Both the position numbers and the translations under genes were made by a program. The notes beneath the pieces were generated by a model. The model worked only from the letters and a program-made list of their open reading frames with translations. It had not been told where the DNA came from and did not search any database. A stretch of 64,000 nucleotides of DNA from an uncultured virus (IMG/VR IMGVR_UViG_3300005469_000597) (taxonomy: Duplodnaviria; Heunggongvirae; Uroviricota; Caudoviricetes), in the IMG/VR virus record IMGVR_UViG_3300005469_000597; one strand, 5' to 3'. Positions 1,629 to 61,883 of the stretch are shown here, piece after piece. How positions within the stretch are numbered: the stretch's first letter is position 1; the number at the start of each line of letters is the position of its first letter.

Positions 1629-1889
1629 CGGTTTTTAATGCAATAAAACAAAACTAATGCATTTTGCACCGCACAAACTCCAATTAATGTTAAACAATCC
1701 CGACCTGTCTTATTTCTACTACAAATTTGTCGTAACTCTGCGGTAAAAAAGAGCCTAAATTGCTGAATGGATTGAATTTCAGGAGGAATAATTAGTAATA
1801 TCATTCAGAGACGGCAAGTTTTGAGCGTTTCCGACAACTCAAAAGCAACCCGTTTCGCTAATTTTATTTCCTGAAAATTGTCCGAAATT

Positions 1890-3065
1890 ATGGCTCTTTT
1901 GAACGCAGTAGTGCTCCAGTCGAAGGAGGTCAAGGGCGGCAGAAACAAAGTAAGAATCTCTGTCGCTCACAACGGCGAGACTCGCTACATCGTAACAGAC
2001 ATTATCCTGAACTCTTCCAAGGAGTTCAAAAAGGGTGCCGTGGTCAAACGGCCAGACGCCACCATCCTGAACGTGAAGATTCGCGGACTACTCCAACGCT
2101 ATCAGTCGGCTCTTGATGAGCTTGACTACATCGACGGCCTGACCTGTCCCGAACTGGTGTTCCAGCTCAAGAACGCCGGAAACTACAAGCACCGTACTCT
2201 CAAATCTATCTACGAGGAGTACATGGAAAAGGCTCACATCAAGTCCGGGACGGCTGCCGGGTATCGCAACATCTGGAGAGTCATCAGTCATCACCTTGGG
2301 GAGAAACTATTGGCCGAGAACATCAATCACGGCACAATCCTCGGCCTCGACAAGTATCTCCGTGGACGTGGCCTCAAACTGACTACCGTCCGCAACTATC
2401 TCGTGTTCCTCATGGTGCTTCTCAACTATGCCAAGCGATGCGGTTATGTGCAGTTCCGTGTCGATCCGTTCTTTGGCTACGAGCTGCCAAAGATGGAAGT
2501 CAGGGAGTCGTGGATTTCCGTCGATGAGGTAAGGCGCATCCGAGACCTTGAAAGCACAAAGCCGAACATCATCAAGTGCCGGGACCTATTCATGCTCTCA
2601 TACTATCTCGGCGGCATCAACATGACCGACCTGCTCGACATCAATTTCAACGAGCAATCCGAAATCATCCACTACGTCCGCAAAAAGACCGAGAATCGTC
2701 CCAAACTGAACAAGTTTGTGGAGTTTCGCATTCCTGATGAGGCCAAGGCAATCATCGCCAAATACAAAGGTTCTGACGGTCGATTGGCCGTAACAAAATA
2801 TCAGCGCACGGACGGTATGCACTGCTTCTTCGATGTGAACATGAGGAAGCTGGCCGAACTGACAGGAATAAAGAACCTGATCTACTACTCGGCGCGGAAA
2901 TCATTCAGTCAGCACGCATTCGACCTCGGCATCAGTACAAGCACAATCGACTACATTCTGGGGCATCGCGTAGACAAAGGAGGTACCTCACTCTACAATT
3001 ATATCTCGGTTACACCGGAAATTGCAACAGAGGCCGTGCGTAAAGTGTTGGATAATCTAAAATAA
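1890..3065 (+). CDS. Tyrosine recombinase / phage integrase (Bacteroidetes type)
   Basis: Arm-binding-like N-terminus, RDLFMLSYYLGGIN, RKKT, YSARKSF, LGH and a C-terminal Tyr; ATG 1890 preferred over TTG 1878. Confidence 0.92.
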   Translation: MALLNAVVLQSKEVKGGRNKVRISVAHNGETRYIVTDIILNSSKEFKKGAVVKRPDATILNVKIRGLLQRYQSALDELDYIDGLTCPELVFQLKNAGNYKHRTLKSIYEEYMEKAHIKSGTAAGYRNIWRVISHHLGEKLLAENINHGTILGLDKYLRGRGLKLTTVRNYLVFLMVLLNYAKRCGYVQFRVDPFFGYELPKMEVRESWISVDEVRRIRDLESTKPNIIKCRDLFMLSYYLGGINMTDLLDINFNEQSEIIHYVRKKTENRPKLNKFVEFRIPDEAKAIIAKYKGSDGRLAVTKYQRTDGMHCFFDVNMRKLAELTGIKNLIYYSARKSFSQHAFDLGISTSTIDYILGHRVDKGGTSLYNYISVTPEIATEAVRKVLDNLK

Positions 3066-3078
3066 AGTGTTAACTTTG
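3048..3078 (+). promoter_or_regulatory. Sigma-A-type promoter overlapping the integrase stop
   Basis: TTG (3048-3050) - 20 bp - TAACTTTG (3071-3078). Confidence 0.7.
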
Positions 3079-3082
3079 CGCT

Positions 3083-3162
3083 ATCAATAATTCCATGAGG
3101 GGTTTATTCCTCCTTGGTTTTATTGGTTTGACTTGGCGAGGGGGTGGTTCCCCTCGCTTTTT
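3083..3162 (+). ncRNA. Predicted small antisense RNA A (5' end approximate)
   Basis: Own promoter, small 5' hairpin, seed GGTTTTATTGGTTTGACTT (3116-3134) complementary to six phage mRNA leaders, intrinsic terminator. Confidence 0.6.
3136..3162 (+). terminator. Intrinsic terminator
   Basis: GCGAGGGG-GTGGTT-CCCCTCGC-TTTTT. Confidence 0.85.
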
Positions 3163-3175
3163 ACTTTCCTCAATT

Positions 3176-3442
3176 ATGATACAGACACTGACAACCGACA
3201 CATCATTTGACAAGTACGAGGAATACCGACTGCACATGGAAACGCTGCTCTCGGCATCGCTGACTGATTTCGATATTCCGGGGCGCATTCTGATACCACT
3301 CGGCGACGCAGGCATACGCCGCCTCCGAGACCTTGTGGCAATGACGAAAAAACAACTTCTCTCGGTCAGCCGTATGGGTGTCGTGTCGGTGGAGTTTTTA
3401 GAGAATTTTCTTGCCAAACAGAATCTCTCCCTGAAGAAATAA
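3176..3442 (+). CDS. Stand-alone RNA polymerase alpha-subunit C-terminal-domain-like protein (88 aa)
   Basis: GRILIPLGDAGIRRLRDLVAMTKKQLLSVSRMGVVSVEFLENFL follows the alpha-CTD pattern R..N.L...GI..L.DLV......LL...N.GKKS..E. Confidence 0.7.
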   Translation: MIQTLTTDTSFDKYEEYRLHMETLLSASLTDFDIPGRILIPLGDAGIRRLRDLVAMTKKQLLSVSRMGVVSVEFLENFLAKQNLSLKK

Positions 3443-3527
3443 CAAAGGGCCGACAATCGCCGGCCCTGGGAGCGCCATCACATCATCATCAACATCATCA
3501 CTGACGCTCCACTCCATATTACTAACA
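3436..3527 (-). ncRNA. Predicted small RNA B (ends approximate)
   Basis: TATTTTCG near-consensus -7 box (3532-3539); 9-bp stem with a 24-nt UGAUGAUG loop (3469-3510); 9-bp terminator hairpin (3446-3467) plus U-rich tail; both stems need G-U pairs that form only on the minus strand. Confidence 0.45.
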
Positions 3528-3553
3528 AGTGCGAAAATAATTTGAGTAAGTAT

Positions 3554-3590
3554 AAAAAATGGCTGCGTTTCACAACGTGGCCATTCTTAT
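3554..3590. terminator. Probable bidirectional terminator ending the lysis operon
   Basis: AATGGCTGCGTT-TCAC-AACGTGGCCATT preceded by an A6 run (U-tract on minus). Confidence 0.65.
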
Positions 3591-3633
3591 TATCCGAAAT
3601 AAAACTTTTGAACAAAGGTAAAACACAAATTCT

Positions 3634-4176
3634 CTAACCTATAACCTTCCTAATCAGTTTCAGGAACGGTTTCCTGAAGATATACGCTCCGGCGACAAGT
3701 GCGGTTCCTACGAGATACCAGAAGGCCGACAGCTTGAACTGCTCGGATTTGCTCAGCGATTTCTCGACATAGACTGGGTATGGCTGAGGCACCGGGATTT
3801 CTTTTGTCTTGACGGCCTCATTGTTGTTCTCGGTGGTAGTCTGCGGCACATAGGCTTCTCCGCTCAACTTGACATCCTTATTGACGAGGTTGTGAAAGAG
3901 CGTGCCGTCTGACGTGATCCATGCGTCGCTCACCGCTACGTCGGTCTCGATATGGCTGGTGTCAGTCTCAAAGACGATGTTGCTGACGGACTGCTGAGGC
4001 ACCGGCACATCGACCATTACCGGAACATACTCGGTTTTGATGACGGTCTCGACTCGCACACTGTCGGAGTTGTTGAGAACGATAGGTGCCGGTGGCAATG
4101 TCTGTGCAATTTGCTTGTTGGTGTGGCACGATGTCAGGGCAAACGCGGCCACGAGAATAATCAGGAATTTCTTCAT
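3634..4176 (-). CDS. Lipoprotein, probable unimolecular spanin
   Basis: Lipobox ALTSC, beta-rich middle, C-terminal TM helix; last gene of the lysis cassette. Confidence 0.65.
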   Translation of the reverse strand: MKKFLIILVAAFALTSCHTNKQIAQTLPPAPIVLNNSDSVRVETVIKTEYVPVMVDVPVPQQSVSNIVFETDTSHIETDVAVSDAWITSDGTLFHNLVNKDVKLSGEAYVPQTTTENNNEAVKTKEIPVPQPYPVYVEKSLSKSEQFKLSAFWYLVGTALVAGAYIFRKPFLKLIRKVIG

Positions 4177-4179
4177 GGT

Positions 4180-4839
4180 TCAGACGTTTTTATATTCCTC
4201 CCTGGCATTGAAACCGGGGCAAGGTTTATTGGCAAATTCGTTGTGACCGTGGACGGGCGCTTGGGGATAACGCTTGCGCAGTTCTTTGAGCAGATTGAGG
4301 ATGCTCACTTTCTGCGCCGCAGTTCGGGTATCGAGGCCGATGTTTTGCCAGTTCTTTGTGGTGCTGACAGGACAGCCGCCCTCATAGCAGATGCCGATTG
4401 AGTGAGCGTTGTAGCCGCTGGCGTGGCACCCTCTCACGTTCTCCGGGCGGCAGGCAATGATGGTTCCGTCCTTACGGATGTAGTAATGGTAGCCGATATG
4501 CCATCTTCGTCCGTCCTTGATATAAACCGAGAAATTACGCGAATTATGGCAGGCTTCCAGGGTTTCGATGCCAAAATCCATGTCAATGGGCGTGGCTGCA
4601 TAATGTAGAATAATCATATTGATGGTCCGTGTGTCGCGGACTGCGTCGACGGTCTCATAGCCGAGGCTACTCCATGTCTTCGCTCCGGCGATGCCGTCAA
4701 CGGTCAGGCCGTGGGCCTTCTGGTAAGCCTTGACTGCGGCCTCGGTCTTGAGTCCGAAGATTCCGTCAGCGGTGATGCCGAGTTTTGTTTGCAGGGTCTT
4801 TACTTCGGGGCCTCTGCTCCCTCTCTTGATTGTATTCAT
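4180..4839 (-). CDS. Endolysin: peptidoglycan-binding domain + N-acetylmuramoyl-L-alanine amidase (T7-lysozyme-like)
   Basis: DGIFGLKTEAAVKAYQKAHGL; IILH, IGYHY, SIGICYEGG, GHNE..KPCP. Confidence 0.93.
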   Translation of the reverse strand: MNTIKRGSRGPEVKTLQTKLGITADGIFGLKTEAAVKAYQKAHGLTVDGIAGAKTWSSLGYETVDAVRDTRTINMIILHYAATPIDMDFGIETLEACHNSRNFSVYIKDGRRWHIGYHYYIRKDGTIIACRPENVRGCHASGYNAHSIGICYEGGCPVSTTKNWQNIGLDTRTAAQKVSILNLLKELRKRYPQAPVHGHNEFANKPCPGFNAREEYKNV

Positions 4840-5318
4840 TCTATTTCTTCTTTAGAGTCGAGTTCTGAAAGGTCAATGTCGAAATGACGCTCGGTCTTGT
4901 CAACGAGAATTTTCTGCATTACTTTCGCCCACTTGGCACCGTTACAACTGGACTCGTTCTCCAAGATGGACCATAACTGCCAGAAGCAGATTGCTCCGGC
5001 GGCAATCTTGGTCAGGTCGATGGGGAGGCCGTCGGTAATGTTCTGCTGAATGTAGAATGCCACTATCACAAGGAAGTATGATTTCATGAGCGTGATCAGC
5101 ACCTTGCCGAAATGGGAAGATGCGAATTTGTGGCCGTCTTTACGGACTCTTTCGGGATGGGCTTTCTTCACCCTCTTGCCCAGCTGCCACGCCGTGAAGC
5201 AATCGGCCAGAATAAGCAGAGTGCAGATGAGAATGTACGGAAGTGTGGGCTCCAAAACAGCCAGCACGGCTCCGAGCAACGAGAACAGGGAGCGGAAGAT
5301 GTCAGAAACGTTGTGCAT
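4836..5318 (-). CDS. Holin
   Basis: Several TM segments and a SILEN motif; overlaps the endolysin start (ATGA). Confidence 0.8.
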   Translation of the reverse strand: MHNVSDIFRSLFSLLGAVLAVLEPTLPYILICTLLILADCFTAWQLGKRVKKAHPERVRKDGHKFASSHFGKVLITLMKSYFLVIVAFYIQQNITDGLPIDLTKIAAGAICFWQLWSILENESSCNGAKWAKVMQKILVDKTERHFDIDLSELDSKEEIE

Positions 5319-5336
5319 GATGATGATTGATTTTTG

Positions 5337-5600
5337 TTAGACCATTGAAACGAGAGCTCCGACACCTGAACCGAGCAAAGCACCGATAGCGTCGGCAAGA
5401 ATGTCATTCCAATCCCAACGATTGCCGATGGCACATTTGTCACCATACTCCTTGCCTACACCTATTGCGACACCGGCAATCATACCGGCGAGGAATGAAA
5501 GAGGATATGATGCGCCGAAAGCCGACTCTATGACGGCGGCTGCGGCCGACACTATGAAGCACACTGCCAAATGCTTGATTTTATCTGTTTGGATTTTCAT
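5337..5600 (-). CDS. Small membrane protein
   Basis: DKIKH...GKEYGD...WDWNDILADAIG, hydrophobic; ATG 5600 preferred. Confidence 0.7.
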   Translation of the reverse strand: MKIQTDKIKHLAVCFIVSAAAAVIESAFGASYPLSFLAGMIAGVAIGVGKEYGDKCAIGNRWDWNDILADAIGALLGSGVGALVSMV

Positions 5601-6588: not shown

Positions 6589-8019
6589 TCAGGTAAACTT
6601 GTATTTCACTTTGTTTCCGTCAAATACCTCACTTTGGATGACGGTTTCAAATGGAAATCCATCCTCCAGGTCGCTCACCTGATCGAGGATGTTTTTCATC
6701 TCTTCGGACGATGTGAAGAACTTGCCCCACTCGCCTGTCTGGGTATCACGGAACGAAACAAGGTAGCGATCCTCACCGTGAGAAGTGTGCATCTCGCTCT
6801 CGAAATCGTGTATCTCCAGACTCTTGTTCTGGAGTGCGCTCAGTCGCATGACTTTGCCGGGGAACCGCTTCTTGCCGTCGGCCGGCGTAAAGACAATTCC
6901 CATCTCAGAAAATTTCTTCATTTTATGATGTGTTAAGATGTAAAACAAATGTTTGCAATCTGCGTGGCACGCCATGCCCTTGAAAGAGCCGATAATCTGC
7001 TGTCGGCGCTTTCGTGACTTGACCTTTGCAAGTTTCCGGGCCGCGTTCTGTTTCACTCGCTTTCGTATGAGTGAATAGACACGGCCAGTCTTGGCATCTC
7101 GGTAGTGTGTATACCCGAGACAGTCAAGACCCTCAGTCATCGGCCGGACTGCGTAATTGGGTTTTACCTGCAAGCCGAGCTTGCTCACCTCATCCATATA
7201 GATGTGCATAAGCCTCCATGCCTCCTTCTTATTGGGCGCGAGGAAATCAGTATCATCACAATAGCTGTAATACAGATAACGCACCTCGACGGTGCCATCA
7301 GGATATGACAGCATATAGTGAGGAACCTCTTGGAGCATACGATGATGAACCGGGTTGAGGTAAAGATTGGCGAGACATTGAGAGGAACGCAGTCCTTTGG
7401 AGAGTCCCTTTGGCATCAAGGTTATGAAGCGGTCTATGATTTTGAGCAGAATTTGGTCTGAAATGAAAGTACGGATTGTTGCTTTCATACCCTCTTGGGG
7501 GATATTGTCATAATATCCCACTATATCGGTCTGCCCATAGCACTGACTCATTTCAGGTGCAGCCACTAAATCGTCTTCTAAGATATGGTGGAGCCAGTGC
7601 ATACCACGGCCTTTGATACTGGCCGCCGTGTTCTTTATGAGTGCCGGGCGCGTGTACTTCTCAACGACAACCATAATGGCATTGATGCCTATACGCTTGA
7701 TAATGTTAGGAGCTTGCACGTCCCTCTCCTTGGGCCCATCCTTAACATGAATATCCTGAACATCAGCACGAGTGATTGAAAATTCACCCGTCTCTATCTC
7801 ACGTTTTAGAATATTATAGACCCTATCCCTCCATGCGTAATAACGATTCCAGCGCTCCTGAATCTGAGGGTCGCTGTCATCAAGAGTTTTATCTGGCCGG
7901 AACCTATCGCGTTGGTGCTTGCATTCGAGATGATCGATTACATAGTCTATGCTTGCGTATAAGTTCTCCCGGCTGACAATCTCGGGGATAAGATTGTCAA
8001 GAGGATATTCTATCTCCAT
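6589..8019 (-). CDS. DGR reverse transcriptase with a ~110-aa C-terminal extension
   Basis: KERDV, ASIKGRG, DIVGYYDNI, GLSKGLRSSQ, YCDD, LDCLGY; adjacent TR/VR pair. Confidence 0.95.
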   Translation of the reverse strand: MEIEYPLDNLIPEIVSRENLYASIDYVIDHLECKHQRDRFRPDKTLDDSDPQIQERWNRYYAWRDRVYNILKREIETGEFSITRADVQDIHVKDGPKERDVQAPNIIKRIGINAIMVVVEKYTRPALIKNTAASIKGRGMHWLHHILEDDLVAAPEMSQCYGQTDIVGYYDNIPQEGMKATIRTFISDQILLKIIDRFITLMPKGLSKGLRSSQCLANLYLNPVHHRMLQEVPHYMLSYPDGTVEVRYLYYSYCDDTDFLAPNKKEAWRLMHIYMDEVSKLGLQVKPNYAVRPMTEGLDCLGYTHYRDAKTGRVYSLIRKRVKQNAARKLAKVKSRKRRQQIIGSFKGMACHADCKHLFYILTHHKMKKFSEMGIVFTPADGKKRFPGKVMRLSALQNKSLEIHDFESEMHTSHGEDRYLVSFRDTQTGEWGKFFTSSEEMKNILDQVSDLEDGFPFETVIQSEVFDGNKVKYKFT

Positions 8020-8183
8020 AGCCTTCAGGGCTCTTAGTTATGTTCCGGCTTTCTCCGGACTGATGTCCGCAAGGGTTGCCGAGGCTCGAACTTCTCGCCT
8101 CTTTCATCGTCATACATGACAGTCGCAGGGTGGCGATTATATAACAAAAGGCGACTATTCGCCTCTATTATAGTCCTCAATGT

Positions 8184-20407: not shown

Positions 20408-20740
20408 TTAGATTGTGCAGATGAGGTTCTCAATCTTGAAGCAACGGAAGGAGTTTTTCTCGGTGTCGAAGTAGGCCATAGTCTTGTAGGAGGGCTTGGT
20501 CACTTTCTTGCCGCCGAGGGTGGCACCGGCAGGAAGATTTTTGAGAGTACCCATAGCCTTGCGGATGGTGCCGTCGGCTTTCTCGTAGTAGAATGTTACC
20601 ACTCCCTCGCGCATGGCTTTTGCAAGCCGGTAGAGCTGCCACGCTTTTATCATGCAGATGCGCCACTGCTGTTTGGTGGCACGCCAAAGCTGCCATGCGT
20701 ACTTCATCACTCTTGCTCTAAAATTGATTTTCTTTTCCAT
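20408..20740 (-). CDS. SH3-fold / DUF2693 (WYL-like) protein
   Basis: VTFYYEKADGTIRKAMGTL...YFDTEKNSFRCFK. Confidence 0.7.
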   Translation of the reverse strand: MEKKINFRARVMKYAWQLWRATKQQWRICMIKAWQLYRLAKAMREGVVTFYYEKADGTIRKAMGTLKNLPAGATLGGKKVTKPSYKTMAYFDTEKNSFRCFKIENLICTI

Positions 20741-20748
20741 GATTATGG

Positions 20749-20888
20749 GGTTTTATTGGTTTGACTTATGTTCTCGTAAGGTGTTTTAGTATCTCCCTTA
20801 CACCTGTAAAGTTAGGGCACGAAAACAGATATTGCAAACAAAATAACCACCATTTAATCACCATTTTACCGCCTTAACATTTACTGAC
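20749..20888 (-). promoter_or_regulatory. Phage promoter/leader cassette copy 1
   Basis: AAATGGTG x2, TTTG-N20-TAACTTTACAG, leader AAGTCAAACCAATAAAACC. Confidence 0.8.
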
Positions 20889-21368
20889 GTTTATGCCAAT
20901 ATGTGTCAAGGCTTCGCGGATGCGCTTGCGTCCGGCAAAGAGCCTGCTCCTGATTGTGGCCGGGAGTGCGTCCATCATTTCGGCTATCTCGCTGACAGTA
21001 TAGCCATCGACAAAGAGCTGCACACATCGGACGCTGTTGAACTCCTCGGCCAATTCCTCTATGGCACCCCGGACAATGGATGCTTGTACCTCCTCTTCGG
21101 GAGTCAGGACCATAGGCGCGTCATAGTCCAACAACGGCAGGAACTCGATACGCTTCTTCCTGCTCAGCTGCGTGAACCGCAGATTATACATGATTGTCTG
21201 CGCCCAGGGCCGGAACTCACGTTGTGTGTCAAACCGTGAGCCGCTTTCAAGTATCCTGAGAACGGTGTCGGCAACAAGATCCTCGGCATCATACTCGTTA
21301 TAGCATAGCCTGCGGGCCTTGGCAAACAGCCATTCATAATTCGATATGACAAGGTTTTCAATCTTCAT
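20874..21368 (-). CDS. ECF-type RNA polymerase sigma factor
   Basis: DAEDLVADT (region 2), FRPW, GYTVSEIAEMM..TIRSRLFAGR (region 4 HTH). Confidence 0.85.
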   Translation of the reverse strand: MKIENLVISNYEWLFAKARRLCYNEYDAEDLVADTVLRILESGSRFDTQREFRPWAQTIMYNLRFTQLSRKKRIEFLPLLDYDAPMVLTPEEEVQASIVRGAIEELAEEFNSVRCVQLFVDGYTVSEIAEMMDALPATIRSRLFAGRKRIREALTHIGINVSKC

Positions 21369-43781: not shown

Positions 43782-44117
43782 TTAGAGCCATGTTAAAACG
43801 ACATAATCATTACGAGGGTCACTGTTGGCAATCCACTTGCAGAGTATGGTGATAAATTTTTCTGGAGTGCTGTCTATTGAATTGTTTTTAAGCCACTCGC
43901 AAAAGTTATCGCGATCTCCTGCAATTTTAGATACGAGATTGGCAAGGTCGGCACGAGGCACCTCAAGTCGCTCAGAGCACTCTATATCATCGCCATCGAA
44001 GCTGATGTCTTCACTATTTTCTTTTAGCAATCGGTTGATTTCTGCGGTGTGGTTGTTAAAATCACCGCCTCCATAGGTCACTTGATAGACTGGAGAGTAA
44101 TGAATACAGTATCCCAT
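43782..44117 (-). CDS. Hypothetical protein
   Basis: 111 aa; conserved leader motif 8 nt upstream. Confidence 0.65.
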   Translation of the reverse strand: MGYCIHYSPVYQVTYGGGDFNNHTAEINRLLKENSEDISFDGDDIECSERLEVPRADLANLVSKIAGDRDNFCEWLKNNSIDSTPEKFITILCKWIANSDPRNDYVVLTWL

Positions 44118-44129
44118 TTTAATGTGGCT

Positions 44130-44903
44130 TTATTGGTTTGACTTGGTTATTTCGTTCACGAAGCGGAGAGTCCAACGGTTGATGTAGGCTTGCCAACACC
44201 CCATTGAGGGTGCCCATCGGAAACCGTTCCGCTTCAGTTGTGTTCTCATCTCATCATCGGGCTTGCCGGGGAAATAGATGCGGACGCGGTTCTCGGAGTA
44301 GCACTCTTCAATAGTCACATCATCAATGGTATATTCCCGGTCTTCCTTGTTCGCCAATGCCTCTGCCTTTGCGAGCTGCTTTTTGGCAGCGTTTATTTTG
44401 GCATTGTTGTTGGTAAGAGCGTAGGCAGGGAATTGTGTGCCATTGGCAACATATCGCTGAGCGTATGGAGCGGAAAAGCCGAGGTGAACAAGAGCCTCAA
44501 CTTTCTCGACATCGGTCATATTCTTGGCGCGTATGATTTTATTTGTCGCCTTCATTTGCTCCTGAACCGCTGTCAACTCGGCAATCTTCTTTTTCAGCCG
44601 ATCTATTGCGTCATCGTCGCCGATGTAGATGTTGTCATTATTCTCAACGGCCTCGGCTTTTCGAGCGTAGTAGGCCGCTTTCTCGGACTCATGTACGCTT
44701 CTCATCATGGCCCCATTGGAACGCTCCAGGGCGCGACGGTGGGCTTTTTCGGAGTGGTGGCCGACGAGGATAGGCTGACCGAGGGGAATGTTTGCTACGG
44801 CATCATTGCTTGCATTGAAAGCGGCTGTGGCTCTCTTAGCGGCGTTCTCGGCATATTCGCGGTACCGCTCGGCCCGCGCCTCTTGTCTTTCTTTCCGTGT
44901 CAT
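44130..44903 (-). CDS. DUF3560 family protein
   Basis: IPLGQPILVGHHSE; C-terminal LKRNGFRWAPS. Confidence 0.8.
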   Translation of the reverse strand: MTRKERQEARAERYREYAENAAKRATAAFNASNDAVANIPLGQPILVGHHSEKAHRRALERSNGAMMRSVHESEKAAYYARKAEAVENNDNIYIGDDDAIDRLKKKIAELTAVQEQMKATNKIIRAKNMTDVEKVEALVHLGFSAPYAQRYVANGTQFPAYALTNNNAKINAAKKQLAKAEALANKEDREYTIDDVTIEECYSENRVRIYFPGKPDDEMRTQLKRNGFRWAPSMGCWQAYINRWTLRFVNEITKSNQ

Positions 44904-45058
44904 GCGTTCTCAGTTCTTAGGAGTTCTACACGGGTGATAGAGTGATACTCACTCCTGATTTCGCACTCGGCCTCTTGGCGGCTGTTCGCTCTGACCCAGG
45001 CATTGAAGCCATCATCGGGGTCATAGGTCGTATAGACCCGAAAAACATACTTTTTCAT
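44900..45058 (-). CDS. 52-aa hypothetical protein (not in ORF track)
   Basis: MKKYVFRVYTTYDPDDG...; leader motif 7 nt upstream; ATGA overlap with next gene. Confidence 0.65.
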   Translation of the reverse strand: MKKYVFRVYTTYDPDDGFNAWVRANSRQEAECEIRSEYHSITRVELLRTENA

Positions 45059-45081
45059 TCTCGTTGGTTTTATGGTTTGAC

Positions 45082-45465
45082 TTATGCTATATCTTCAAGG
45101 ACTTTGTCAAGAGAACTCCAAAGCTCTTTCACGTCATCCTCGCTAAATTCGGTTTCCTCATCGGTGTCTTCATCATAGTGAGAGGCGGTAATTTCCGTAA
45201 CCTCGCCCCATGCTTTCCGAAGATCGCAGCTCGGTGGAGTCCAATAATCACCGGGGTCATTATCCCACTCTCCACAGCACTCATAGGTAACTTCAATGAG
45301 CCAGCCATCTTCCTCATAGCAGAAGTAGTTGGTGGTTGAGTCATCGCATCGTCCCCATCCATCCTCGTCTTGTTCGTAGTAGGACTCTCCGATTTCGTGG
45401 TCTTGGCTTGCGAGCAGGTCTACAAGTGTAGGAATGAGAGTGTTGAGGTCGGATATTGTTTTCAT
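45082..45465 (-). CDS. Highly acidic hypothetical protein
   Basis: 127 aa, D/E-rich; first gene after promoter cassette 2. Confidence 0.7.
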   Translation of the reverse strand: MKTISDLNTLIPTLVDLLASQDHEIGESYYEQDEDGWGRCDDSTTNYFCYEEDGWLIEVTYECCGEWDNDPGDYWTPPSCDLRKAWGEVTEITASHYDEDTDEETEFSEDDVKELWSSLDKVLEDIA

Positions 45466-45476
45466 CTCTTTGGCGA

Positions 45477-45585
45477 TTTTATTGGTTTGACTTGTGGAGA
45501 TTGTATCTCCCTTACACCTGTAAAGTTAGGGCAGTGAAACTGGTTTTGCAATCAGAATGGCCACCATTTTAGCACCTTAACGTTT
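45477..45585 (-). promoter_or_regulatory. Phage promoter/leader cassette copy 2
   Basis: 31 bp identical to copy 1 (45503-45533 = 20789-20819); same spacing. Confidence 0.8.
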
Positions 45586-45596
45586 GTCAAGAAAAG

Positions 45597-52286: not shown

Positions 52287-54257
52287 TCACTTCTTGGGGG
52301 CTTCAAGCTGTTCGCAGACTGCCACTCTGACACCTGCTTTCGTTAGTTTTCGCACATAGGTGTCGAGTGCATTATGAGGGAACCCGGCGACCATCTTCTT
52401 GCCACGCTTGGTAATGGTTATCTGGAGTAACTCAGCGGCTTTTTCCGCATCCTCGTTGAACAACTCGTAGAAGTCATTGACGCGGAAGATGAGGATTGAA
52501 CCAGGGTGCTTCTTCTTCATCTCCTTGAATTGCTTCTCTATGGAGGTTGGACGCTTGGCCGGAGTGGTTTCGGCGGCAGGTGCCTCGGTTTCGATTTTCT
52601 TACCGTCAAGAGTATAACCGAGGGCTTTCAGCTGAGCCGTGATTTTCTTCTCGCTCTTGCTGAATTTCTCGTTGACCTTGTCGCGGGCCTCATTGTACTC
52701 GACAGGGCACCAAATCTCTCCGAGACGGTCAACATGAGGCTTGGCCAGGTGCTTGACTTCATCAAGGATGAGAATTGTGGTACCGCAAGCAAGCGCGTGT
52801 TTCATCCATGCTCTGAGAATAAAGGGCGCCATCTCAAAATGGCCGGAGACATAGGCCGTGATTTCCTCGGCGGAGGGATACTTACCGAGGCCGAGTTCGG
52901 TGCAGAGCTCGCTATTGTTCTTCACCATCATTGAGTAAGCGAGGATAAACTCGGAATTGTCAAGTCCGTTGAGGTCCTTGATTTGGCCATGCTCGCCGAG
53001 AGCCTTACAACCCTGAGATACAAGGTAGGCAGGGAGCGAGCTTTTCTCAGACTTGTACTTACTGACAAGCTCCTGAACTTTGAGAGGGAGTCCGTTGCTG
53101 TCAATATTCGTGGTCTGATCGTCTTTTTTGAGGTACCACGCCTGCTCTTCTATGCGGATGTAGTTGTAGCTCCCCAACTGAATAACACGGTAGCACTCTC
53201 CGCTCTCCAGGAATTTTTGAGTGCGTTCATCGTCCATGTCGTACCAGCATCGGCTCTTGAACTGACTCGACGGCTCAACTATTTCGTAGCCGAGTTCCTT
53301 GACTTTGGCGCGTACAGCCTCTTTGAGTTTTTTGATACTGCCGGGGGCATAGGAATCATTACCTATGGCTATAACAGCTTTGCCCTTTTCAAGAGGCTGT
53401 CCGGCCTTGACAAGAGTGCTGTCATTGCTCCGCAGATATTCCGCGATGTAGGCAACAGTCTTGGCGATGAATTTATCCTCGCAAGTACACTGGCCGTCGG
53501 TGGCTTTCATTTCGTAGAACAGACAGCCGTGGTTGCAGATGTTGTGCTGACACTCACTGCAAGAGGTGCCACAACCACCGGCAAATTCAGCATCGCTTTT
53601 CCACACTGCATCAATGATGTTGAGGAACAGGCCCTTGACAAATCCCGAAGCGTTTGCTGTTGTGAAGCCCTGATAGCTGTCATCGTACTGCTTGAAGTAT
53701 GCGCGCTGCTGATCCTCGGTAACTTTGCAGATTATCATGGCCGCACTGATGGGCATCTTTTCCTCTTTCAAGGCTTTCATCAACTCAGGAATGAGAGAGT
53801 TGAGTTTGATGCGGTCCTGAACGAAGCGGATGCTCTTGCCGAAGCGGAGCGCAATGTCTTGGATTGAGCTGCCTTTCTTTTGGAGTTGCCCGAAAGCAAA
53901 GGCTTCCTCCATCGGGTCAACATCCTGACGTTGCAGGTTCTCGGTGATCATCGCGTCGAAGGCCTCCTCATCGGACATCTCTTTCACAATGGCCATAATC
54001 TCGTCCCAGGGATTGAACGGCAACTCGTTATTGAGTTCCGTTTCCTCAAAGAGGATACGGTAAGCACGATAGCGGCGCTCTCCGCAGACAATCTCATACT
54101 CGGTGTTATCTGCTACCGGACGCACCGTGATAGGCTGGAGAAGTCCCTGCTGACGAATATTCTCCGACAGTTCCTTCAACGCCGCCTCGTCGAATGTTTT
54201 GCGAGGATTCATCGGTGACGGATGCACCGATGATAGTTTTACGGATTTTACTTCCAT
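52287..54257 (-). CDS. ParB/Spo0J-family protein with a C-terminal MutS domain-I-like module
   Basis: NPRK, GLLQPI, CGERRYRA, ENLQR; C-terminal FRVNDFYELF..DA, AGFP, VAVCEQ. Confidence 0.85.
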   Translation of the reverse strand: MEVKSVKLSSVHPSPMNPRKTFDEAALKELSENIRQQGLLQPITVRPVADNTEYEIVCGERRYRAYRILFEETELNNELPFNPWDEIMAIVKEMSDEEAFDAMITENLQRQDVDPMEEAFAFGQLQKKGSSIQDIALRFGKSIRFVQDRIKLNSLIPELMKALKEEKMPISAAMIICKVTEDQQRAYFKQYDDSYQGFTTANASGFVKGLFLNIIDAVWKSDAEFAGGCGTSCSECQHNICNHGCLFYEMKATDGQCTCEDKFIAKTVAYIAEYLRSNDSTLVKAGQPLEKGKAVIAIGNDSYAPGSIKKLKEAVRAKVKELGYEIVEPSSQFKSRCWYDMDDERTQKFLESGECYRVIQLGSYNYIRIEEQAWYLKKDDQTTNIDSNGLPLKVQELVSKYKSEKSSLPAYLVSQGCKALGEHGQIKDLNGLDNSEFILAYSMMVKNNSELCTELGLGKYPSAEEITAYVSGHFEMAPFILRAWMKHALACGTTILILDEVKHLAKPHVDRLGEIWCPVEYNEARDKVNEKFSKSEKKITAQLKALGYTLDGKKIETEAPAAETTPAKRPTSIEKQFKEMKKKHPGSILIFRVNDFYELFNEDAEKAAELLQITITKRGKKMVAGFPHNALDTYVRKLTKAGVRVAVCEQLEAPKK

Positions 54258-54261
54258 AGTG

Positions 54262-54357
54262 GGTTTTATTGGTTTGACTTTTAGTTGATTGTACTGTAAA
54301 GTTAGTCACCGTGAGCGGATTTTGCAAACAGAATGGCCACCATTTTTACACCATTTT
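54262..54357 (-). promoter_or_regulatory. Phage promoter/leader cassette copy 4
   Basis: AAATGGTG x2, TTTG-N20-TAACTTTACAG, 19/19 leader motif. Confidence 0.8.
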
Positions 54358-54577
54358 ACCATGAGTAAGTGGCACCGTTGAATGTCCATTCAACTTTCTG
54401 ATAGCGGAAGAAACCGCGTCGGGCAGTCTCTTCAAACATCGGAATATCTTTCGTCTTGATCTCTCCGGGAGTATGACCGTTCACAGTCGTATATTTGGGA
54501 AGACCGAAATGTTTCCTAATGGCCACGATTGCTTCCTCGTCTTTCGTGACCCAATAGATTACAACCTTCATCGCCAT
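54356..54577 (-). CDS. Hypothetical protein
   Basis: ~71-73-aa ORF coupled to the ATPase gene. Confidence 0.6.
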   Translation of the reverse strand: MAMKVVIYWVTKDEEAIVAIRKHFGLPKYTTVNGHTPGEIKTKDIPMFEETARRGFFRYQKVEWTFNGATYSW

Positions 54578-60048: not shown

Positions 60049-61108
60049 CGCTGTTATCTTTAAGTGTTATTTTGAACGAGCCGCTGACGGCCTTTTGGGT
60101 GAAATATTGAGCGGCCAAGTCGGGATGGTCTTTCTCGAAACTTTTTGCATCGAATGTCCGTCGCATTGAGGCCGCTCCGAGAGTTGTCTTGAACAGACCG
60201 CTGTCCCAACTCCTTAGACCTCGCTTCTCCATCGCTTCTCTCAGCAAAGGCTTCACTCGGTCAAGTTCTGAGTCTATGTGCTGCTTTTGTTTGAGCAGCT
60301 TGTTTACATAGGCTATCATGTCTTCCGGCAAAATGCTCCCGGCATCGCTTGTGGACCGCTGTCCGAGTTGAGGATGCAGGAGCTTGCGGTCGGGATGCTC
60401 ATAGACGATTGAGCCGTCAAAGGACTCATACCACACCGCTTTCAGCAGTTCAAGAACGAGTTCGTCGGGCTTGCGCTCGATAATCCAAAACGCTGCCTCA
60501 TCCTTGCGGAGCCAGTTGGCACACAGACCTTCTACTTTGAGTCCGGGGTTCTGTCTCTCGAACAGCACCGCGTACACTGACAGCTGCCATGAGAGATATT
60601 CTTTCAGACCGTCCGCGTGATTGGCGAAGTAGTTAGGCAATCCGTAGCCGTCAAGCGGATAGTAGTTGAGGTTGTTGGTCTTGGTGTCGGCCAGCCAGAT
60701 GCCGCCGGTACTCTCGCGTATCCATACGTTGTCTATCTGAGATGCGTATTGGAAATTGTCGCTGACAGTGTACTCGTTGGCAAGAGGAATGAAGCCCTGG
60801 CGGTGGCGGATGTAACTGTCAAGTTCGCGGCTCACGTCCCAATCTTCATCGCCGAAGCTATTGGGATATGTGGTTTCCTTGATGCCGAGGTCATCATACA
60901 GCTCAATAGCTTTGTGGACGGATGAACCATACTGGCCGGCCCTTGGGATTGCCGTGTTCTTTACGAAGTCACTTGCATCAGGATAGACACCCAATTCAAG
61001 GACTGAATGAATGAGTCCGGTGATGCCCATCAGTCGCTTATCGCCGAGGGCATACCGGTGGAGCTCCTCATTGAACTCCACCGGGCTTTTAATCAGTTCG
61101 ATGCTCAT
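60041..61108 (-). CDS. PD-(D/E)xK exonuclease partnering ERF
   Basis: GSSVH, ASQID, LADTKT, WQLSVY. Confidence 0.75.
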   Translation of the reverse strand: MSIELIKSPVEFNEELHRYALGDKRLMGITGLIHSVLELGVYPDASDFVKNTAIPRAGQYGSSVHKAIELYDDLGIKETTYPNSFGDEDWDVSRELDSYIRHRQGFIPLANEYTVSDNFQYASQIDNVWIRESTGGIWLADTKTNNLNYYPLDGYGLPNYFANHADGLKEYLSWQLSVYAVLFERQNPGLKVEGLCANWLRKDEAAFWIIERKPDELVLELLKAVWYESFDGSIVYEHPDRKLLHPQLGQRSTSDAGSILPEDMIAYVNKLLKQKQHIDSELDRVKPLLREAMEKRGLRSWDSGLFKTTLGAASMRRTFDAKSFEKDHPDLAAQYFTQKAVSGSFKITLKDNSDD

Positions 61109-61758
61109 TTAGCCGGATTTTGGATTGAGTGAGATTTTGCGCTTACAGCCTGATAGAACTCGGTGCCTTTGGCGCAGAGTGCCGGAACTGCGGTGCTCCA
61201 CTTTTTCCACACAGATGTTATGTGGTCGGGGGTGGTGCATCGGCCAAGTTCCTCAAGCGCCTCTTTGAGTTGTGCGCCGGTGAACGTGGCGGCAGGTTGC
61301 TGATGTCCGCGTTCCTTGAACTCAGCCTGATTGCCGCAGGCGAGGTTGGCATCATCGTCGGTGTCAGCCACGATACCGAGGATAGCACAGTAGGAGTAGC
61401 GCTTCAGGTAGGTAATGGCGGAGCCATAAGCCTGATAGTCGGTTGTCTGATTGGGTAACATCAGTTCGCTCTTGAACCACTGGCCGCTCTTGTGCGAGAG
61501 GATGGTTACGAGCTTGCCGTCGCTGATGAGCTGACAGACGGAGAGACCGTTGGCTTTGAGAGCCGGGGTGGCGGCTTTCACACAAGCGCAGAGGTCTGCG
61601 TACTTGAACGAGTATGAGCCGCCGGTCTTGGTCTTCACCTTAACCTCTTTTTCAAGTTTGGGCTGCTCGACACTGCCCTGAAAGGCAGAGAGAGCTGCGC
61701 TGATTTCGTTGATACTCTCGCTCATGTAGGAGACGAGTCTGGGAGTTGTTTCTTCCAT
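61105..61758 (-). CDS. erf: ERF family single-strand annealing protein
   Basis: KYADL, HKSGQW, GSAITYLKRYS, DDDA. Confidence 0.88.
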   Translation of the reverse strand: MEETTPRLVSYMSESINEISAALSAFQGSVEQPKLEKEVKVKTKTGGSYSFKYADLCACVKAATPALKANGLSVCQLISDGKLVTILSHKSGQWFKSELMLPNQTTDYQAYGSAITYLKRYSYCAILGIVADTDDDANLACGNQAEFKERGHQQPAATFTGAQLKEALEELGRCTTPDHITSVWKKWSTAVPALCAKGTEFYQAVSAKSHSIQNPAK

Positions 61759-61766
61759 TTTGAATG

Positions 61767-61883
61767 GGTTTTATTGGTTTGACTTATGTTTCATTTCACC
61801 TGTAAAGTTAAGGCAGATTGACGAGAGGTACAAACAGATTAAACACCATTTTATCAATATTTTACGCCTTAACATTTACTGAC
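61767..61883 (-). promoter_or_regulatory. Phage promoter/leader cassette copy 5
   Basis: Same boxes and spacing; shares GCCTTAACATTTACTGAC with copy 1. Confidence 0.8.

Follow-up and report, generated by a model that had tools for sequence, protein, structure and literature searches.

The stretch of DNA analyzed here (the window) comprises 64,000 nt from an uncultured virus of the Caudoviricetes (IMG/VR record IMGVR_UViG_3300005469_000597), a temperate, siphovirus-like prophage of gut Bacteroidales. Our subject is a short locus on its + strand, directly behind the integrase gene. As judged from its sequence, this locus is a predicted trans-acting base-pairing small RNA gene with its own promoter, terminator, and accessible seed (Table 1). 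An earlier note on this DNA had proposed that such an RNA, made in the lysogen, occludes the translation-initiation regions of six dispersed genes on the opposite strand.

The predicted small RNA gene and its leader-like counterparts

The last codons of the integrase gene overlap the -33 region of the RNA promoter. The promoter is of the Bacteroides sigma-ABfr type, for which the consensus is given as TAnnTTTG at -7 and TTTG near -33 (PMC7366714). A signature for an own promoter and a terminator that would delimit a short transcript were thus both present at the locus. The TTG-N20-box promoter and the small hairpin described in the earlier note were recovered, as was a terminator ending in T5, the stem of which is longer than the 8 bp that had been assigned to it (Table 1). 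Folding of the region 3080-3165 gave -36.0 kcal/mol compared to -20.9 ± 3.0 kcal/mol for shuffled sequences (z = -4.99; 0 of 200 as stable), and the stretch GUUUGACUU just before the terminator was single-stranded in both the minimum free energy and the centroid structures. Pairing of the inner hairpin with the terminator arm as an anti-terminator was also considered, and was discarded since the sequence of the hairpin varies among homologous loci. A search of the whole window against Rfam at the gathering score yielded a single match, RT-3 at 7968-8138, and none at the RNA locus; no match was obtained for 2950-3300 at E ≤ 1, and blastn of the RNA region against 50,697 phage records likewise returned nothing.

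Table 1. Features of the predicted small RNA locus, the matching leader copies, and the adjoining genes (positions in the window; ORF, open reading frame).
Feature	Position	Strand	Details
Tyrosine integrase	1878..3065	+	Pfam Phage_int_SAM_5 5.8e-8, Arm-DNA-bind_5 9.2e-5
Promoter, Bacteroides sigma-ABfr-type	3048..3078	+	TTG 3048-3050, 20 nt, TAACTTTG 3071-3078
Predicted ~80-nt small RNA	3083..3162	+	start ~3083 inferred from the -7 box
RNA 5' arm AUCAAUAA	3083-3090	+	base-paired to UUAUUGGU within the seed
Variable inner hairpin	3096-3112	+	from terminator scan
Seed, antisense copy of the leader motif	3116..3134	+	3' part GUUUGACUU unpaired
Intrinsic terminator	3135-3158, T5 to 3162	+	10 pairs, 7 GC, loop 4
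88-aa ORF, RNA polymerase alpha C-terminal domain-like	3176..3442	+	Pfam RNA_pol_A_CTD 1.5e-5, 25.0 bits vs cut-off 23.8
Leader copy	20749..20767	-	8 nt 5' of ATG, WYL_2 gene 20408-20740; -7 box 20806-20814 upstream
Leader copy, one change (G-U wobble)	44126..44144	-	8 nt 5' of ATG, 111-aa ORF 43782-44117
Leader copy, 1-nt deletion	45066..45083	-	7 nt 5' of ATG, 52-aa ORF 44900-45058
Leader copy, one change (G-U wobble)	45475..45493	-	9 nt 5' of ATG, 127-aa ORF 45082-45465; -7 box 45520-45528 upstream
Leader copy	54262..54280	-	4 nt 5' of ATG, ParB_N-HTH_ParB-MutS_I gene 52287-54257; -7 box 54296-54304 upstream
Leader copy	61767..61785	-	8 nt 5' of ATG, ERF recombinase gene 61105-61758; -7 box 61802-61810 upstream

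The seed is one member of a repeat family. When the 64-kb window was scanned for GGTTTTATTGGTTTGACTT, exact + strand copies were found at 3116, 20749, 54262, and 61767 (0 mismatches) and copies with one mismatch each at 44126 and 45475; a seventh copy, at 45066, carries a 1-nt deletion and was read directly in the sequence. The six matches with at most one mismatch compare to 0.02 expected, and none of 100 dinucleotide shuffles produced six. Both substitutions retain a G-U wobble with the RNA strand of the 3116 copy. These results confirmed the seven-site repeat of the earlier note together with most of its start coordinates, whereas the ends given for the copies at 44126 and 45477 were off by 1-2 nt. 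The placement upstream of ATG codons was borne out as well, with measured gaps of 4-9 nt in place of 4-11 nt. In this way 15-19 nt of the RNA are complementary to six start regions located 17-59 kb away, all of them on the strand opposite to the RNA gene, and the duplex of the seed with the 19-nt leader was calculated at -26.7 kcal/mol. An eighth motif copy of the same prophage lies just beyond the window (~64.7 kb) and precedes a 158-aa ORF of no recognised family, for which a search of the ESM Atlas gave nothing usable (best score 0.82).

Four of these seven leader copies belong to genes that come first behind identical promoter cassettes; the other three occupy internal junctions between genes. 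The near-identical cassettes (20806-20880, 45520-45590, 54296-54365, and 61802-61870, all on the minus strand) consist of two tandem AAAATGGTG boxes just 5' of the -33 TTG, then TAACTTTAC, then the leader; they contain the sole four matches to the TAACTTTAC box in the window. The junction copies (44126, 45066, and the one beyond the window) have no promoter and overlap the stop codon of the preceding gene, which is a DUF3560 gene (44130-44903) for the 44126 copy and the ORF 45082-45465 for the 45066 copy. Pfam searches agreed with the naming of ParB-MutS (ParB_N, HTH_ParB, and MutS_I) and ERF as targets along with three small genes, the products of which (111, 52, and 127 aa) had no Pfam matches. 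The gene previously listed as SH3/DUF2693 corresponds to the family named "WYL_2, Sm-like SH3 beta-barrel fold" and is the first of an operon with 888-aa and 2799-aa structural proteins. Because one target heads a tail-fibre operon, the term "early regulon" used in the earlier note is too narrow.

The association of the motif with start codons extends to other phages. The exact 19-mer occurred in 77 copies in 71 viral-contig loci; CAT was located 4-17 nt upstream in 70 of the 77 (at 4-9 nt in 68 of them), five were of the RNA type with promoter, seed, and terminator, and the remaining two lacked CAT, one of these having CAC at 8 nt. Many of the viral contigs are near-identical, so these counts are not independent. 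A -7 box was present within 80 nt in only 36 of the 72 non-RNA copies. These data support the view that the leaders are translation-start elements and not promoter elements, as far as their position tells. Pairing of the leader with 16S rRNA as an "epsilon-like" enhancer was examined separately and rejected. For the 16S rRNA of a genome of the same family the best match was a 7-mer (-11.1 kcal/mol), which 110 of 200 and 26 of 300 shuffled leaders equalled, and the 16S rRNAs of two Bacteroides carriers contained no such stretch (136 of 300 and 144 of 300 shuffles as good); G001 and five other carriers lack an assembled 16S gene.

The same observations bear on the idea that the 19-mer acts as DNA, being an operator or a polar signal bound by a phage protein, with the copy behind the integrase as one more such site. 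All copies, including that at 3116, have one DNA orientation; the motif contains GGTTT twice, 9-10 bp apart; and the phage encodes both a helix-hairpin-helix-type (alpha-CTD-like) protein and a CI-like helix-turn-helix (HTH) protein. However, half of the copies are situated at promoterless internal junctions and still keep a gap of 4-9 nt to the start codon. Spacing from the -7 box ranges between 13 and 36 nt, relatives do not retain the first GGTTT, and the 3116 copy is embedded in a co-varying RNA stem. The tandem AAAATGGTG boxes at the four cassettes and the ACGTAnnnTACGT-like palindromes at the early promoter are better operator candidates, and we judge the DNA-site explanation to be very unlikely.

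Conservation and co-variation

A covariance model built from five variants matched 22 of 151 genomes of the host family at E ≤ 0.01. The match was strong in eight, all strong matches retaining the seed core UUGGUUUGACUU, and some of the weak ones were false, two of them (L090 and L091) being tRNA genes behind similar promoters. One genome from each of 185,579 species was then scanned with a pattern made of the seed core and part of the terminator. This yielded 62 loci with Bacteroides, Phocaeicola, Muribaculaceae, Duncaniella, Sangeribacter, and Prevotellaceae labels; the Bacteroides records were xylanisolvens XB1A, acidifaciens, faecichinchillae, bouchesdurhonensis, congonensis, hominis, and sp. 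KFT8. The full model, including the 5' half that is absent from the pattern, matched all 62 loci (E ≤ 4.4e-8).

Covariation was analyzed in an alignment of 13 sequences and then in one of 63 sequences (58 distinct). Among the 58 distinct sequences, pairing was maintained in 96.1% of 1298 alignment cells and compensatory double changes were seen in 15 of 23 base pairs; when the partners were slid by 1-3 columns as a control, only 47-55% were paired, and none of five structure measures was reached by any of 500 shuffles. Within the seed-containing stem, pair 44:93 was represented by UA (38), GU (12), AU (5), and GC (2), and pair 46:91 by AU (23), UA (21), GU (11), and CG (1). The terminator helix was 99.8% paired, with double changes in 7 of its 10 pairs, and a T-run was found in 58 of the 62 loci. 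Of the 62 loci, 58 retained TAnnTTTG, the nn positions being occupied by seven different pairs, and 56 of these 58 had TTG in the -33 window. Since compensatory changes occur in the stem that holds the 5' part of the seed, the seed copy is under selection as a + strand RNA, in agreement with the orientation proposed for it in the earlier note. We conclude that the locus belongs to a real, conserved, and widespread structured RNA family that is absent from Rfam.

This conservation is pertinent to a further account, in which the repeats merely reflect duplication of a promoter-leader cassette, with the copy behind the integrase as a non-functional remnant of one such event. Four copies do stand in near-identical cassettes (two AAAATGGTG, -33, TAACTTTAC, leader), and some RNA loci (L075) keep a CAT remnant at leader-like spacing 5' of the seed, suggesting an origin by duplication. 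Retention of a consensus promoter, compensatory pairs, and a terminator over 58 distinct sequences, however, is not what a remnant would show, nor would a remnant hold its place in every prophage examined, and purifying selection on the structure is evident; the probability that we attach to this account is minimal.

Several divergent loci were noted in the course of these searches. Three model matches (L089, L092, and L094 in G136, G134, and G092) share a promoter-hairpin-terminator unit with a conserved GUGGAUUUAGUGGU before the terminator and without leader-like targets, the unit being present in up to four exact copies in one genome; their pre-terminator stretch, GGATTTAGTGGT, differs from that of the RNA and yielded no multi-copy pattern of leaders beyond that of the reversed-pattern control. 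One genome has a second RNA-like locus of divergent sequence, L103 (G079:C12:130965-131115); it has a promoter and no terminator, its 5' arm co-varied with the altered seed (ACCGACUG/CAGUUGGU), and it runs on into sequence like the flank of a leader site of the other prophage. L103 may represent a remnant or an intermediate stage of evolution. In L238 and L245 (rumen metagenome-assembled genome records) a second TAACTTTG promoter directly follows the terminator and is succeeded by a short GC-hairpin unit containing AAAACCAAG, which may be a second small RNA.

The arrangement of RNA and leaders was compared in eight contiguous prophages (G001:C12, G009:C16, G079:C43, G145:C31, G466:C1, and the Bacteroides records G551, G552, and G553, reached through loci L249, L204, and L198). 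In every contiguous multi-leader prophage examined, the RNA gene was the outermost copy, beside the integrase, and all leader copies (3-7 per prophage) were on the same DNA strand as the RNA copy. G466:C1 is from another family of the order, and the architecture spans at least three labelled host groups. Prophages that keep the leaders and lack the copy behind the integrase, which the earlier note had named as a case that would refute its proposal, were not found among these eight, each with at least three leaders. Less complete records were also inspected. In G106 the RNA is on a different contig from the leaders. G121 has three leaders and no model match, with the whole segment of integrase (int), RNA, and alpha-CTD ORF missing; because its assembly ends before that segment, this genome is uninformative and not a counter-example. 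G133, G128, and G118 have the RNA with no or few leaders and may represent short contigs or remnants. A second phage-like region of G001 (G001:C7:30606-33547; L174) contains three leader copies before + strand genes, and the 16 kb read there held no RNA gene (weak model match only, E 0.03); the RNA encoded by the first prophage would also encounter this region.

Seed complementarity to the leaders amounted to 15-19 nt in the window phage and 12-23 nt in its relatives. Contiguous identity around the core averaged 16.9 nt for RNAs with leaders of their own phage (n = 31) versus 15.1 nt for cross comparisons (n = 186), and the own-match sum was reached by 2 of 5040 RNA-to-phage assignments; for 11 phages, 5 of 200,000 random assignments reached the observed sum. 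In addition, each phage has one site that reaches into the terminator's 5' arm and follows the sequence that the arm has in that lineage (GGCAAG in G079, GGCGAT in G466, GTGAGGG in Bacteroides, and GGAGAGGG in G106), with 18 of 362,880 assignments as good. For the window phage the fixed-position script chose the 45475 copy; the homologous site, identified by eye, is GG-GAGGG at the copy beyond the window. The co-variation of seed and leaders that the earlier note had called for was detected across prophages; a better match of leaders to the RNA of their own phage was not seen in the Bacteroides branch.

Expression, proposed action, and known antisense RNAs

Expression was assessed from Logan contigs of RNA libraries, which give neither strand nor transcript ends. 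In a gut metatranscriptome (X5), one contig (3128-3563, depth 14.4) bridged the terminator and the ORF resembling the RNA polymerase alpha C-terminal domain (alpha-CTD), while the adjacent lysis genes were uncovered. Another contig (1929-2432, depth 4.3) was located inside the integrase gene, and the rest of 1878-5400, including 2433-3127 and the part beyond 3563, was uncovered, although contig gaps prove nothing. This cover fits lysogenic + strand expression with read-through. Library X15 covered only 3395-3703, and libraries X1 and X2 are probably DNA.

The ORF behind the terminator starts 14 nt past the T-run, which leaves no room for a promoter, so that it would be transcribed only by read-through; possible roles for its product are those of a transcription factor and of a recombination directionality factor. 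The RNA might accordingly be viewed as the attenuated 5' leader of this gene, or as an int 3' untranslated region, with leader-bearing lytic mRNAs altering read-through or int mRNA stability. The contig that bridges the terminator, the int-RNA-alphaCTD synteny kept in Muribaculaceae-type loci, and the one target site with complementarity into the 5' arm of the terminator are all in line with that view. A crude motif test, however, found the ORF behind the RNA in 27 of the 62 loci (at least three more have it by eye) and not in the other 35, where the RNA, promoter, and terminator are still conserved; it is present in Muribaculaceae-type phages and absent from the Bacteroides/Phocaeicola branch (all named records) and G079. 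Roughly half of the loci have the RNA without this ORF, which makes the RNA an independent unit and not merely the leader of that gene. Attenuation and antisense action are not mutually exclusive, and attenuation as the explanation of the RNA appears quite improbable.

The reading that we favor, and consider reasonably probable, is that a trans-acting antisense RNA blocks the start of translation of a phage regulon, beside a CI-like repressor. The interpretation in the earlier note is supported, in that its predictions held wherever they could be checked by computation. From the arrangement described above we infer that the RNA accumulates, pairs with its leaders in vivo, represses, and has a role in immunity. 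An RNA of ~80 nt would be made from the sigma-ABfr-type promoter just after the integrase and ended by the intrinsic terminator. Its 5' end would fold onto the 5' half of the seed, leaving GUUUGACUU, between the stem and the terminator, as a toehold. This toehold would nucleate pairing with AAGUCAAAC in the leaders, and the duplex would grow to 15-19 bp by opening the 5' stem. The target would be the A-rich leader AAGUCAAACCAAUAAAACC, which precedes the start codon by 4-9 nt in at least seven genes, and the paired leader, at about -5 to -30, would take up the unstructured A-rich stretch that the 30S subunit needs for binding in these organisms (PMC7366714). Translation would be blocked at first genes and at internally re-initiating genes, and the mRNAs would probably be exposed to decay. 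In the lysogen the RNA would thereby silence leaky or incoming lytic transcripts, as a post-transcriptional layer beside the CI-like HTH repressor, which has palindromic operators at the other end of the prophage.

A number of points weigh against this antisense reading. The structure alignments were fitted to the model, which favors the structure, and the pattern used to choose the 62 loci already prescribes the seed core and a portion of the terminator. The RNA-library cover is unstranded and without ends, and DNA carry-over is possible. In the co-variation analysis the own RNA was the best match in only 5 of 11 phages, the leaders of four Bacteroides-type phages fit the RNA of G079 better than their own, contiguous complementarity in the Bacteroides type is only ~12-14 nt, and shared ancestry along with gene conversion among the repeats could yield part of the signal. 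When 75 start regions were ranked by RNAduplex against the whole RNA, the six targets were within the best nine and not cleanly separated, because GC-rich pairings with the terminator intrude; this ranking was not used as evidence. A conventional CI-like repressor is present (phrog_8 3e-7), immunity may not need the RNA, and the RNA is therefore unlikely to be the sole immunity factor. Finally, the seed core does not vary between phages of different host families; an immunity determinant that diversifies is not expected to stay fixed, and the invariance thus hints at an extra constraint on the leader.

The last point leads to the possibility that the leader is a cis-acting mRNA element, either a translation enhancer or a site for protein binding or cleavage, with the RNA serving as a sponge, activator, or stabiliser. 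The T4 proteins RegA and RegB, which act at mRNA sites, provide a model for such an element. Constraint beyond pairing is suggested by the invariance of the leader core AAGUCAAACC in phages of several host families, the direction of regulation is not readable from sequence, and the leader puts A-rich sequence at about -5 to -18, a region in which mRNAs of Bacteroidetes are described as A-enriched (PMC7366714). A cis element nevertheless leaves unexplained why a structured antisense copy with promoter and terminator exists in every contiguous prophage, and why the seed flanks and the terminator arm track the leaders; moreover, no candidate RNA-binding protein was identified, and 16S pairing was unsupported. 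We regard this alternative as unlikely.

Extending the antisense reading beyond the window phage, we tentatively propose an RNA silencing system that is common to temperate phages of gut Bacteroidales. It would combine the near-universal toehold seed UUGGUUUGACUU with a common leader that takes the place of Shine-Dalgarno sequences, and a lysogen would use it to silence its own lytic genes and those of incoming relatives. The RNA gene would have arisen by duplication of a leader and would co-evolve with its primary target through the terminator arm. This larger proposal has, in our estimate, somewhat less than an even chance of being correct.

The antisense relation of the RNA to the leaders of a phage regulon is well supported, and among known systems it would be a variant form of phage antisense-RNA control, one aimed at a leader that dispersed genes of the same phage have in common. 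The c4 RNA is processed from the operon that it controls, and its target is essentially one operon (ant). In contrast, the RNA described here has its own promoter and terminator, its targets are in other operons on the opposite strand at distances of ~17-61 kb, it matches at least seven dispersed start regions, and it belongs to a host without Shine-Dalgarno-based initiation. No antirepressor was recognised among the predicted targets. As summarized in PMC12197685, c4 of the P1/P7 immI region blocks the translation of a lytic-pathway gene by pairing around its ribosome-binding site, and the likeness lies in a phage-encoded, small, structured antisense RNA that in the lysogen stands beside a protein repressor, a function assigned here by analogy. 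The resemblance is functional only, and the RNA is not a c4-type member. The CI RNA of P4 is described as an RNA immunity factor that pairs with more than one complementary site (seqA and seqC; PMC4825925), and the present RNA similarly has several complementary sites in phage transcripts. P4 CI is cut from an untranslated leader and acts by premature termination within one operon, whereas the sites reported here are 4-9 nt before start codons in several operons, a location that points to translation control. No terminator followed the leader sites in the sequence read, and three of the sites are at internal junctions of translated operons.

The closest parallel in host and layout is GibS of Bacteroides thetaiotaomicron. 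According to the account in PMC7366714, GibS represses by pairing at translation initiation regions without Hfq, and Bacteroides mRNAs lack Shine-Dalgarno sequences and are A-rich 5' of the start. The two RNAs have in common the host group, a sigma-ABfr promoter, an intrinsic terminator, and an extended single-stranded seed (PMC7366714). GibS, however, is chromosomal, has metabolic targets, and pairs imperfectly, whereas the RNA examined here is phage-borne, matches the phage's own genes, and is perfectly complementary over 12-23 nt. Among prophage small RNAs of enterobacteria, IsrK of Gifsy-1, 24B_1, svsR, and OOP tune lysis-lysogeny or exclude phages (PMC4825925, PMC12197685, PMC12803456); as described in these sources, each has a single phage or host target, and none is said to recognise one leader repeated before many start codons of the phage that encodes it. 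No description of the present RNA was found in the literature searched, which was mostly outside subscription journals, and the motif strings appeared only in two unrelated papers. The word stem "Bacteroid" does not appear in a 2025 review of phage small RNAs.

How lysogeny is maintained by temperate phages of Bacteroidales, which are dominant in the gut, is poorly understood, and post-transcriptional control in Bacteroidetes, without Hfq and Shine-Dalgarno-led initiation, is described as only starting to be mapped (PMC7366714). One RNA for a shared leader at many start codons would form a compact, testable regulon, and it may provide a mechanism of cross-immunity among widespread gut prophages. 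Cultured carriers exist in the form of the named Bacteroides records. If the proposal is true, this would be the first trans-acting phage small RNA regulon described in Bacteroidota, and it would offer a ready-made orthogonal pair of leader and RNA for translational control in Bacteroides.

Prophage context

The prophage spans ~1.8 kb to ~66.4 kb in window-equivalent coordinates. Its left boundary is a host ychF-like gene (474-1577), and in the nearest genome, G001, the right boundary is tgt, ~2.4 kb past the end of the window. The only + strand genes are int, the RNA locus, the alpha-CTD-like ORF, and two ORFs at the far right, one of which resembles phage HTH regulators/repressors (phrog_8 3e-7, phrog_4 2.6e-4). 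The minus strand encodes, in order, a block of recombination and replication genes (ERF, exonuclease, SSB, NinB, helicases, and ParB); terminase, portal, protease, capsid, tape measure, and a sigma factor; and last WYL_2 with the very large structural proteins, a diversity-generating retroelement, and endolysin.

A divergent control region is located ~2.6 kb right of the window end (L173:2600-2760, G001:C12), where a CI-like 119-aa HTH ORF (phrog_8 3e-7) faces the canonical early promoter TTTG...TACCTTTG. This rightmost early promoter is flanked by three ACGTAnnnTACGT-like palindromes, which are likely operators of the CI-like protein, and the early transcript begins with GCAGCATCAATCAA, resembling the start of the small RNA (GCGCTATCAATAA). 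The AAAATGGTG boxes of the promoter cassettes also precede leaders in phages of other host families and probably bind an activator or repressor of the phage.

The phage sigma factor gene (20874-21368, minus strand; Sigma70_r2 5.9e-12, r4_2 1.4e-5) lies amid the tail genes, just 5' of the WYL_2 cassette. The diversity-generating retroelement (6589-8138, minus strand) includes a reverse transcriptase (phrog_1423 5e-68) and the RT-3 RNA (Rfam RF03068, 47.8 bits), and it adjoins the gene for the 2799-aa structural protein; its reverse transcriptase region shares 68-78% identity with temperate phages of Bacteroides, among them hankyphage-type records.

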